Shown: positions 36,001 through 39,000 of the stretch, piece after piece
Numbering within the stretch: position 1 is the first letter of the stretch
How the letters are laid out: the number at the start of each line of letters is the position of its first letter
From: Escherichia coli O127:H6 str. E2348/69
GTDB taxonomy: Bacteria > Pseudomonadota > Gammaproteobacteria > Enterobacterales > Enterobacteriaceae
Length of the DNA stretch: 64,000 nt
Reading direction: 5' to 3' (one strand)
Assembly: GCF_000026545.1 (NCBI RefSeq)
Contig: NC_011601.1
Position numbers: made by a program

Positions 36001-39000
36001 AGCACAAATCCCAGCCATTCGCCTGATGGATGCCAGTTAAATGCAGACTGAATATCCGTTTTATTATGGGTTAACTGGCGTGGTTCACCGCCCTGTGGCG
36101 AGATAAGCCACAGTTGCACAATGCCGTTATCATCGCGCATTAAAAACGCAATTTGTGTTCCTTGAGGATTACAACGCACCCAGTGGCGCGGAATGTTAAC
36201 CAGGCCCGGATAAATACGATGGTGCGTAAAGGTTAAACGTCGCTGCACGACGCCACGCGGTGGCGCGGGCAGGGTTGTTTCCGTTCCACTTAACGGCACT
36301 TCACCTGCCGCTTTCCAGCCAGCTTCATCTTTCGGCAACTCGACAATAAACAGCTCCGGCACTTTCTCGCCTTTTTGCGAAAGCGTATCGCCAATAAACG
36401 CCAGTGCGTGATTTCCTACCCATCCTTCTTCATAAGCACGATTGATTTCATCACTGCCAGGCTGTGGCGTGGGCGTGGTTTTACTTACCAGCACGCACCA
36501 GTGGCTACCGCTGTATTCACGCGGATGCTGCTTTTGTACGTTGACTGGGCCAAACGGTGCAGCAACACCGACATTTCGCAAATCCAGCGCCGGATCGAGT
36601 TCATGCATTACATGGTCGTTGTAGGTAAAGCTCACCCTTTCACCGTTTGGGCTAAAGACATGTACATGACTGCCGCCGCGCAGCGCTCCTGGCGTATATG
36701 GCGCGGTAATATCCATTGCATCGAGATTGCTCACCTTGCCGCTTTCAACAATCACTCCGCGCCGATGATGAAAGTCGTAATACCATGTTTCATCAGGATT
36801 TTCCGGGCCGTGGATGAAGACATACTTCTCTGACTTCGGATGAACGGTCACCACGCCGACGTGTGCGCCCTGTGACGCGCGATAGATAACCTCGACCTCG
36901 CCGGTATGGATATTCACACGCTCAATGGTCTCGCCGGTAAACGACGCCCCAGAAGGACGCACGTCAAATACCAGCCACTGGCTGTCGGGCGTCCAGGTAT
37001 TGGTATTGGTGAGCAGGTGATTACGGGGAGCAAAGGTTATCTGTTTCATGGCGCGGTCCTGATACAAAACGGGTCCCGCCATCATACTTCACAAGGACTT
37101 CACTTTCAGACAATAGTCTTTCGCCATCGTGATGAATGTGAGTGAAAAGATGGAACATTTCGACGTGGCGATTATTGGCCTCGGCCCGGCAGGGTCGGCG
37201 TTGGCACGAAAGTTAGCAGGAAAAATGCAGGTGATCGCGCTGGATAAAAAGCACCAGTGTGGTACTGAAGGTTTCAGCAAACCTTGTGGCGGTCTGCTGG
37301 CACCGGACGCGCAGCGATCTTTTATTCGCGATGGACTGACGCTTCCTGTCGATGTCATCGCCAACCCGCAGATTTTCAGCGTCAAAGCCGTCGACGTCGC
37401 CGCATCGCTCACGCGTAACTACCAGCGAAGCTATATCAATATTAATCGCCATGCTTTCGACTTGTGGATGAAATCGCTGATCCCCGCCAGCGTTGAGGTT
37501 TACCACGACAGCCTGTGTCGAAAAATCTGGCGTGAGGATGATAAATGGCATGTCATTTTTCGCGCAGACGGCTGGGAGCAGCATATTACCGCCCGCTATC
37601 TGGTCGGTGCCGATGGTGCCAACTCGATGGTGCGGCGACATCTCTACCCGGATCATCAGATTCGTAAATATGTCGCCATCCAGCAGTGGTTCGCAGAGAA
37701 ACATCCGGTACCGTTCTACTCCTGCATCTTTGATAATGCGATAACTGACTGTTACTCATGGAGTATCAGCAAAGACGGTTATTTTATCTTTGGCGGTGCC
37801 TATCCGATGAAAGACGGTCAGGCGCGTTTCGCGGCGCTGAAAGAGAAAATGAGTGCCTTTCAGTTCCAGTTTGGTAAGGCGGTGAAAAGCGAAAAATGCA
37901 CGGTGCTGTTTCCCTCACGCTGGCAGGATTTTGTCTGCGGCAAGGACAACGCCTTTCTGATTGGCGAAGCGGCGGGATTTATCAGCGCCAGCTCGCTGGA
38001 GGGGATTAGCTATGCGCTGGATAGCGCAGAGATTCTGCGTTCGGTATTACTGAAGCAGCCAGAGAAGCTCAATACCGCTTACTGGCGCGCCACTCGCAAA
38101 CTGCGTTTAAAACTCTTCGGCAAGATAGTAAAAAGCCGATGCCTGACCGCACCGGCTTTAAGAAAGTGGATTATGCGCAGTGGAGTGGCGCATATTCCAC
38201 AGTTGAAAGATTATCCAACGCGCTTCACATCGCCCACCAGCATGATGTAAGAGAGCGCGCCAATCAACGCGACGGCGGAGATATAAACCAGTGCAGGTGC
38301 GAAACCGTAACCCTGCGCCAGGTACCCCACCACCAGCGGAACAGTGATGCCGCCCAGACCACCGGCAAAGTTAAACACGCCGCCGGTTAAACCAATCAGG
38401 CGCATCGGTGCCAGAGAAGAAACCAGCGACCAGGTAATCGAAGCAAAACCGTTGCCGAAGAATGCCAGCGCCATCAGGCACATAATCATCATCGGATCGT
38501 TGGTGTAGTTAGCGCCCATAATGCAGGTGGAGATCAGCAAGCCGCAGATAATCGGCGTTTTACGCGCAAAGCCCAGTGAAAAGCCCTTACGTACCAGCAG
38601 ATCCGCGACCCAGCCAGAGAGCAGGACGCCAATAAACGCCGCGAGGAACGGCACCGTGGTCATAAAGCCTGCTTTCAGCGCTGTGATTCCTTTTTCCTGG
38701 GTTAAATAGTTCGGGAACCAGGTTAAGAAAAACCACAGTGTAGAAGCCACCGCAAATTGCCCAAGATAGACACCGATCAGTTTACGATGGAACACCAGTT
38801 TCCAGTCTTTGGCTGTTAACGGCTGACGCGCCTCTTTCTTCACCGGCGCATCGCCATCCACCAGACCGCCGCCATCACGAATGTAATCCAGTTCAGCTTT
38901 GCTGATGCCTTTGGTCAGACGCGGCGGCTGATAAACCTTAAACCAAATCAGCGACCAGATAATGCCGATACCACCGGTGACAATGAACACCCAGTGCCAG

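Follow-up and report, generated by a model that had tools for sequence, protein, structure and literature searches.

A polymorphic cbrA stop codon as the probable source of the 40-nt convergent cbrA/dgoT overlap in Escherichia coli O127:H6 E2348/69

The convergent overlap between the 3' ends of cbrA and dgoT in Escherichia coli O127:H6 strain E2348/69 is, taken as a whole, very probably the outcome of natural variation at a single base of the cbrA stop codon. At position 38214 of the window, the 64,000-nt stretch of DNA analysed here, the strain carries a T that gives a tyrosine codon in cbrA, in place of the G found in K-12, BL21, O157:H7 and PI24, where the same codon is a TAG stop. In the alignment of the 3' ends this is the sole difference responsible for the length of cbrA, which is annotated as 1101 nt in E2348/69 and as 1065 nt in BL21 C43(DE3), O157:H7, PI24 and K-12 MG1655; the shorter gene encodes 354 residues and overlaps dgoT by 4 nt (TTAG). 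Read on the opposite strand, the same base is the third and final one of the dgoT coding sequence before the stop, the last codon being GGA here versus GGC, both of which encode glycine. The overlap is an already annotated, common stop-codon shift and is most likely neutral.

Both partners are genuine coding genes located on opposite strands and sharing 3' coding sequence, as indicated by the ORFs, the RefSeq annotation and the family models (Table 1). Between 37100 and 38600 the window is 100% identical to NZ_CP059840.2, an independent complete assembly of E2348/69, and the RefSeq coordinates in the identical E2348/69 record agree with ours (cbrA at 3551-4651 and dgoT at 4612-5949 of the locus). 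The mechanical ORF of cbrA spans 37129-38250 and opens with a GTG at 37129, the annotated start being the ATG at 37150 (MEHFDV...). The dgoT stop, TAA on the minus strand, is read as TTA on the plus strand at 38211-38213. The shared segment comprises the last 12 sense codons and the stop of cbrA and, on the side of dgoT, the stop codon, the last 12 codons and one base of the next codon. The original prediction had described a 40-nt convergent overlap at this place, with the cbrA frame running about 12 codons beyond the end of dgoT; the ORFs, the sequence and the RefSeq coordinates confirm the interval, and 12 sense codons followed by TAA were counted.

Table 1. Coordinates of the features described in the text (positions in the window)
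Feature	Position	Strand	Details and evidence
cbrA, long allele; FAD-dependent, geranylgeranyl-reductase-like colicin M resistance lipid reductase	37150..38250	+	366 aa + stop; ORF, translation, RefSeq WP_001339866.1, family models
dgoT; D-galactonate:H+ symporter, MFS	38211..39548	-	ORF, RefSeq WP_000253442.1, TIGR00893
Convergent overlap	38211..38250	both	40 nt; ORF listing, sequence, RefSeq
cbrA codon 355, TAT (Tyr)	38212..38214	+	Polymorphic base at 38214
Second difference within the overlap	38243		T in the window; every other locus compared has G
TAA stop used by the long cbrA allele	38248..38250	+	Translation
Extra 5' stretch of dgoT in RefSeq	39504..39548	-	15 codons upstream of the curated K-12 start
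dgoD fragment	39623..40000
IS4/Tn5-like element splitting dgoD	39994..41543		RefSeq: ISEc13 family transposase
Transposase ORF	40005..41378	-
dgoD fragment	from about 41544

The family assignments support the reading frames of both genes. CbrA scores 685 bits against the NCBIfam equivalog NF008519 (PRK11445; cut-off 303), residues 1-354 corresponding to positions 1-354 of the 355 in the model, and the 12-residue tail lies outside this match, which ends at residue 354. Residues 9-14 (GLGPAG) form the GxGxxG motif of an N-terminal FAD-binding fold, the Pfam families DAO and FAD_binding_3 are both above their cut-offs, and the geranylgeranyl reductase family model TIGR02032 matches with E = 2.4e-33, under its own cut-off. 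Over 354 residues the protein is 97.5% identical to an MG1655-derived allele. For the K-12 enzyme, saturation of the alpha-isoprene unit in C55-P-linked peptidoglycan precursors has been reported, and through it protection against colicin M when the protein is overproduced (reviewed in PMC8469651). A search of solved structures gave no close relative of CbrA, only a distant match to a Baeyer-Villiger monooxygenase over residues 5-165. DgoT scores 491.7 bits against the D-galactonate transporter model TIGR00893 (cut-off 395) and is 99.1% identical to K-12 DgoT (b3691) over 430 residues. The RefSeq start of dgoT at 39548 gives a protein of 445 residues, versus 430 from 39503, the equivalent of the curated K-12 start.

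The arrangement of the two stop codons shows how a single base produces the difference. The convergence of cbrA and dgoT is so tight that in most relatives the stops interlock as TTAA or TTAG, sharing 4 nt. The fourth base of this TTAN serves both as the third base of the cbrA stop and as the wobble base of the glycine codon GGN that ends dgoT. Changes at it are silent for DgoT but decide whether cbrA has a stop there, with TAA or TAG, or a tyrosine codon, with TAT or TAC. Given the T at 38214, ribosomes are expected to read 12 further cbrA codons in E2348/69, and the added codons, which are the antisense of the C-terminal dgoT codons, would extend to the next in-frame TAA and give a CbrA of 366 residues. 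That TAA arises on the strand opposite to the dgoT codons for Tyr (TAC) and Ser (TCT) and is kept in nearly all the homologous loci examined, whether used or not. The antisense frame of dgoT holds 20 stops in 444 codons, with a median spacing of 14.5 codons and 65% of the gaps being at least 13 codons long; a read-through of 12 codons is a typical length for this frame. Because the genes abut under both alleles, the 3' ends of their transcripts must overlap either way, and the allele would alter only the point where cbrA translation ends. The base difference was observed directly, as were the fact that it is silent in dgoT, how frequent it is and how it is distributed among taxa. A terminator scan of 36900-39800 returned only weak consensus matches (7, versus 3.5 ± 1.9 expected), and a weak hairpin within the overlap (38232-38216, minus strand) was not taken as evidence for a terminator.

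A second difference in the overlap, at 38243, alters both proteins: residue 365 of the CbrA tail is Met (Arg elsewhere) and residue 421 of DgoT is Met (Leu in K-12). From the loci compared, this T looks like the only lineage-restricted feature of the overlap. With respect to the closest CbrA allele, that of ST131 and CD306, the protein of E2348/69 carries four Thr-to-Ala replacements (residues 80, 225, 228 and 229) together with R365M; of the 11 nucleotide differences within the first 1,062 nt of cbrA, these four replacements explain 4.

Allele frequencies were obtained by megablast of 5,426 complete E. coli genomes, using 55-mers centred on 38214 and 28-nt seeds that each had to contain the site. 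The T form matched 1,499 genomes, 1,394 of them at 95% identity or more over cbrA and dgoT and the other 105 at about 91%; all five genomes sampled from the latter group carried the match in a second dgo operon located elsewhere and devoid of cbrA. At the native locus T is then present in about 1,394 of the 5,426 genomes, approximately 26%, a value not to be taken as a population frequency, the collection being skewed to clinical lineages. G matched 3,977 genomes and A a single one. The C allele, sought with its 55-mer in the same 5,426 genomes, was never found adjoining cbrA; with no occurrence at the native locus, it was confined to additional copies of dgo, carried on four plasmids and at one further site in a chromosome. 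The counts sum to approximately the 5,382 genomes that hold most of the 1.5-kb query. The single A belongs to NZ_CP025268.1, an MG1655-derived record (Boston) and the only one of the 5,426 with TAA for TAG at the cbrA stop, a change silent in dgoT (GGT); this may be an engineered TAG-to-TAA recoded strain.

Carriers of T include ST131, CD306, UTI89, ATCC 25922, a strain labelled HS, PCN061, USMARC-51688 and CE0007a, and RefSeq gives cbrA as 1101 nt in every T carrier whose annotation was inspected. The allele lies on at least three cbrA haplotypes, a B2-type (E2348/69, ST131, CD306), that of HS, PCN061 and USMARC-51688, and that of CE0007a, which are 40 to 49 differences apart from one another over 1,062 nt and equally far from the G haplotypes. 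As judged from these haplotypes, the stop/Tyr difference is an old polymorphism and no private mutation. Within E. coli the cbrA haplotypes diverge by about 4% in nucleotide sequence, a seemingly high value for a gene on the chromosome.

These data bear on the two readings offered in the original prediction, a strain-specific loss of the cbrA stop codon that adds a C-terminal extension, or a normal convergent overlap. The alignment of cbrA with K-12 and other alleles, which had been proposed as a check, shows 3' ends that differ (TAG versus TAT) rather than an identical end. The stop is indeed missing with respect to K-12, where TAG stands for TAT, but the change is not strain-specific, about 26% of the genomes sharing the T, and the implied direction is probably wrong as well, the gene tree described below placing Tyr at the base of Escherichia. 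The second reading was closer to the truth, the overlap being widespread and annotated in RefSeq. A recent stop-loss mutation private to E2348/69 would account for the sense codon that does replace the K-12 stop, but it is ruled out by the approximately 1,394 complete genomes with T and their three divergent haplotypes, and TAT occurs also in E. albertii and Pseudocitrobacter and TAC in E. whittamii, so that we give this origin a negligible probability. A sequencing or annotation artefact is less credible still: the independent complete assembly of E2348/69 is identical, the allele is present in more than 1,000 genomes and the family models support the reading frames.

Outside E. coli, a scan of species-representative genomes with a degenerate pattern for DNA encoding the conserved C-terminus of DgoT gave 84 loci, and tblastn with CbrA found an adjoining convergent cbrA at 12 of the 84. 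The scan returned no representatives named E. coli, E. fergusonii, E. marmotae or E. ruysiae, and the Escherichia outgroups sampled were E. albertii, E. whittamii and Escherichia sp. E1V33. The cbrA codon homologous to codon 355 of E2348/69 is TAT in E. albertii and Pseudocitrobacter vendiensis and TAC in E. whittamii, all three with the 40-nt overlap. It is TAG in Escherichia sp. E1V33 and Citrobacter sp. Cu233, with a 4-nt overlap, and TAA in C. amalonaticus (two genomes), C. sedlakii, C. youngae, Citrobacter sp. Res13, Enterobacter sp. ENT03 and Phytobacter massiliensis, again with 4 nt (TTAA). The shorter overlap of the relatives goes with a point mutation of the stop codon, TAG or TAA versus TAT or TAC in the same codon.

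In a neighbour-joining tree of 18 cbrA sequences, built with the polymorphic site excluded, the TAA genera are basal, Tyr lies at the base of the clade formed by Pseudocitrobacter and Escherichia, and TAG is seen in the clade of K-12, BL21 and PI24 as well as in O157:H7 and E1V33. The most parsimonious course on this tree would be a single change of TAA to TAY, creating the 40-nt overlap, followed by two or three changes of TAT to TAG, or by a single one that recombination then spread; the presence of TAG also in E1V33 and O157:H7 implies that several origins or recombination are needed. Tyr, and with it the 366-residue protein, would then be the older Escherichia state kept by E2348/69, and the TAG of K-12 a secondary truncation. 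We hold this polarity to be rather more probable than its reverse, with moderate confidence because the tree is small, unbootstrapped and drawn from a recombining species.

Under the opposite polarity TAG (or a TAA changed to TAG) would be ancestral in Escherichia, and the TAG stop would have been lost to Tyr several times independently, giving TAT in E. albertii and in several lineages of E. coli and TAC in E. whittamii; this is a minority reading that we regard as doubtful. It agrees with the stop (TAA) at the homologous position in the more distant genera and with TAG being the majority allele in E. coli and present in Escherichia sp. E1V33, but it demands at least four or five stop losses (E. 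albertii, E. whittamii, Pseudocitrobacter and two or three E. coli haplotypes), and on the gene tree one loss plus two or three regains, or recombination, is more parsimonious. O157:H7, O55:H7 and Escherichia sp. E1V33 have lost the dgo operon by deletion, and a 114-nt remnant of the dgoT 3' end abuts cbrA and is followed by yidX; the remnant, at 4612-4725 of the locus in O157:H7, retains the cbrA TAG stop.

The 12-residue tail is presumably translated in E2348/69, and most likely it is a functionally neutral appendage to a C-terminus that was already variable, as comparison between genera suggests. The conceptual peptide beyond the site is nearly identical across all the genera, even where cbrA stops earlier; since it is conserved where it is untranslated, its conservation is imposed by the dgoT coding sequence and not by CbrA. 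The end of the protein after the AHIP motif varies by genus in both length and sequence, from QLKD in Escherichia to some 19 residues in Citrobacter, for instance SQDDQPATTSGGLVKDS.

A functional or adaptive extension, in which the tail might alter the stability, membrane association or activity of CbrA, or in which 36 nt more of translation into the dgoT-complementary region might change antisense interference between the transcripts, seems improbable to us. Both alleles occur at appreciable frequency and on old haplotypes, and the switch has happened repeatedly, which speaks for such a role. Against it, the dgoT coding constraint fully explains the tail sequence, the tail falls outside the family model at a C-terminus that is hypervariable between genera, the read-through has the length expected by chance and the 3' ends overlap at the RNA level under both alleles, the genes abutting in both. 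The persistence of both alleles on divergent haplotypes could reflect balancing or lineage-specific selection instead of neutrality. A more specific version, slightly less probable again, is that the stop/Tyr switch at TTAN is a selectively maintained two-state polymorphism that tunes the level or activity of CbrA in B2-type versus K-12-type lineages; the tuning could act through the 12-residue tail or through translation 36 nt further into the dgoT-complementary region.

The dgo operon of E2348/69 presents features of its own. dgoT lies downstream of dgoD, at the end of the operon, and dgoD is split by the IS4/Tn5-like element of Table 1, whose ends are CTGTCTCTT and AAGAGACAG, flanked by the 8-nt direct repeat TGCATGGG. 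The whole dgoD-IS junction was found in only 3 genome records, and the E2348/69 chromosome has the IS end at 29 places. The strain has probably lost the ability to catabolise D-galactonate, and expression of dgoT, located downstream of the interrupted gene, may be poor. In about 105 E. coli genomes a dgoKADT operon occupies a different chromosomal site, beside hypT and a degraded IS200/IS605 tnpA (for example NZ_CP029747.1, 129432-137476), and a dgoT-like 3' end is present on four plasmids, including NZ_AP022088.1 and NZ_CP128940.1; neither the plasmid copies nor the second-site copies have cbrA beside them.

The lengths of 354 and 366 residues seen for cbrA between E. coli lineages are no sign of pseudogenisation or misannotation, and K-12 probably does not represent the ancestral form at the cbrA/dgoT locus. 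In practical terms, a change engineered into the cbrA stop codon is at the same time an edit of the last codon of dgoT. The biological weight of the difference is small; convergent overlaps come and go by single-base shifts of stop codons.

The corresponding pair in K-12, cbrA (b3690, yidS) and dgoT (b3691), consists of the same genes in identical order and convergent orientation, with the two stops located in the same tetranucleotide; this reads TTAG in K-12, with 354 residues and a 4-nt overlap, and TTAT in the window, with 366 residues and 40 nt. The long-allele CbrA of ST131, CD306, UTI89, ATCC 25922, HS, PCN061, E. albertii and E. whittamii displays the same 366-residue architecture and 40-nt overlap as E2348/69, where the tail ends in MM versus RM in the other long alleles owing to the T instead of G at 38243. 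Convergent overlaps are known to arise by stop-codon movement and to be easily gained and lost as neutral by-products (PMC4161906). The present case resembles the tail-to-tail overlaps of that study in that a point mutation at the stop leads to the use of the next in-frame stop, and in that the overlap is gained or lost between close relatives, which fits the neutral by-product model (PMC4161906). What is particular to cbrA/dgoT with respect to convergent overlaps in general is that the mutable base is at the same time the wobble base of the last codon of the partner, so that the change comes at no cost to the latter.
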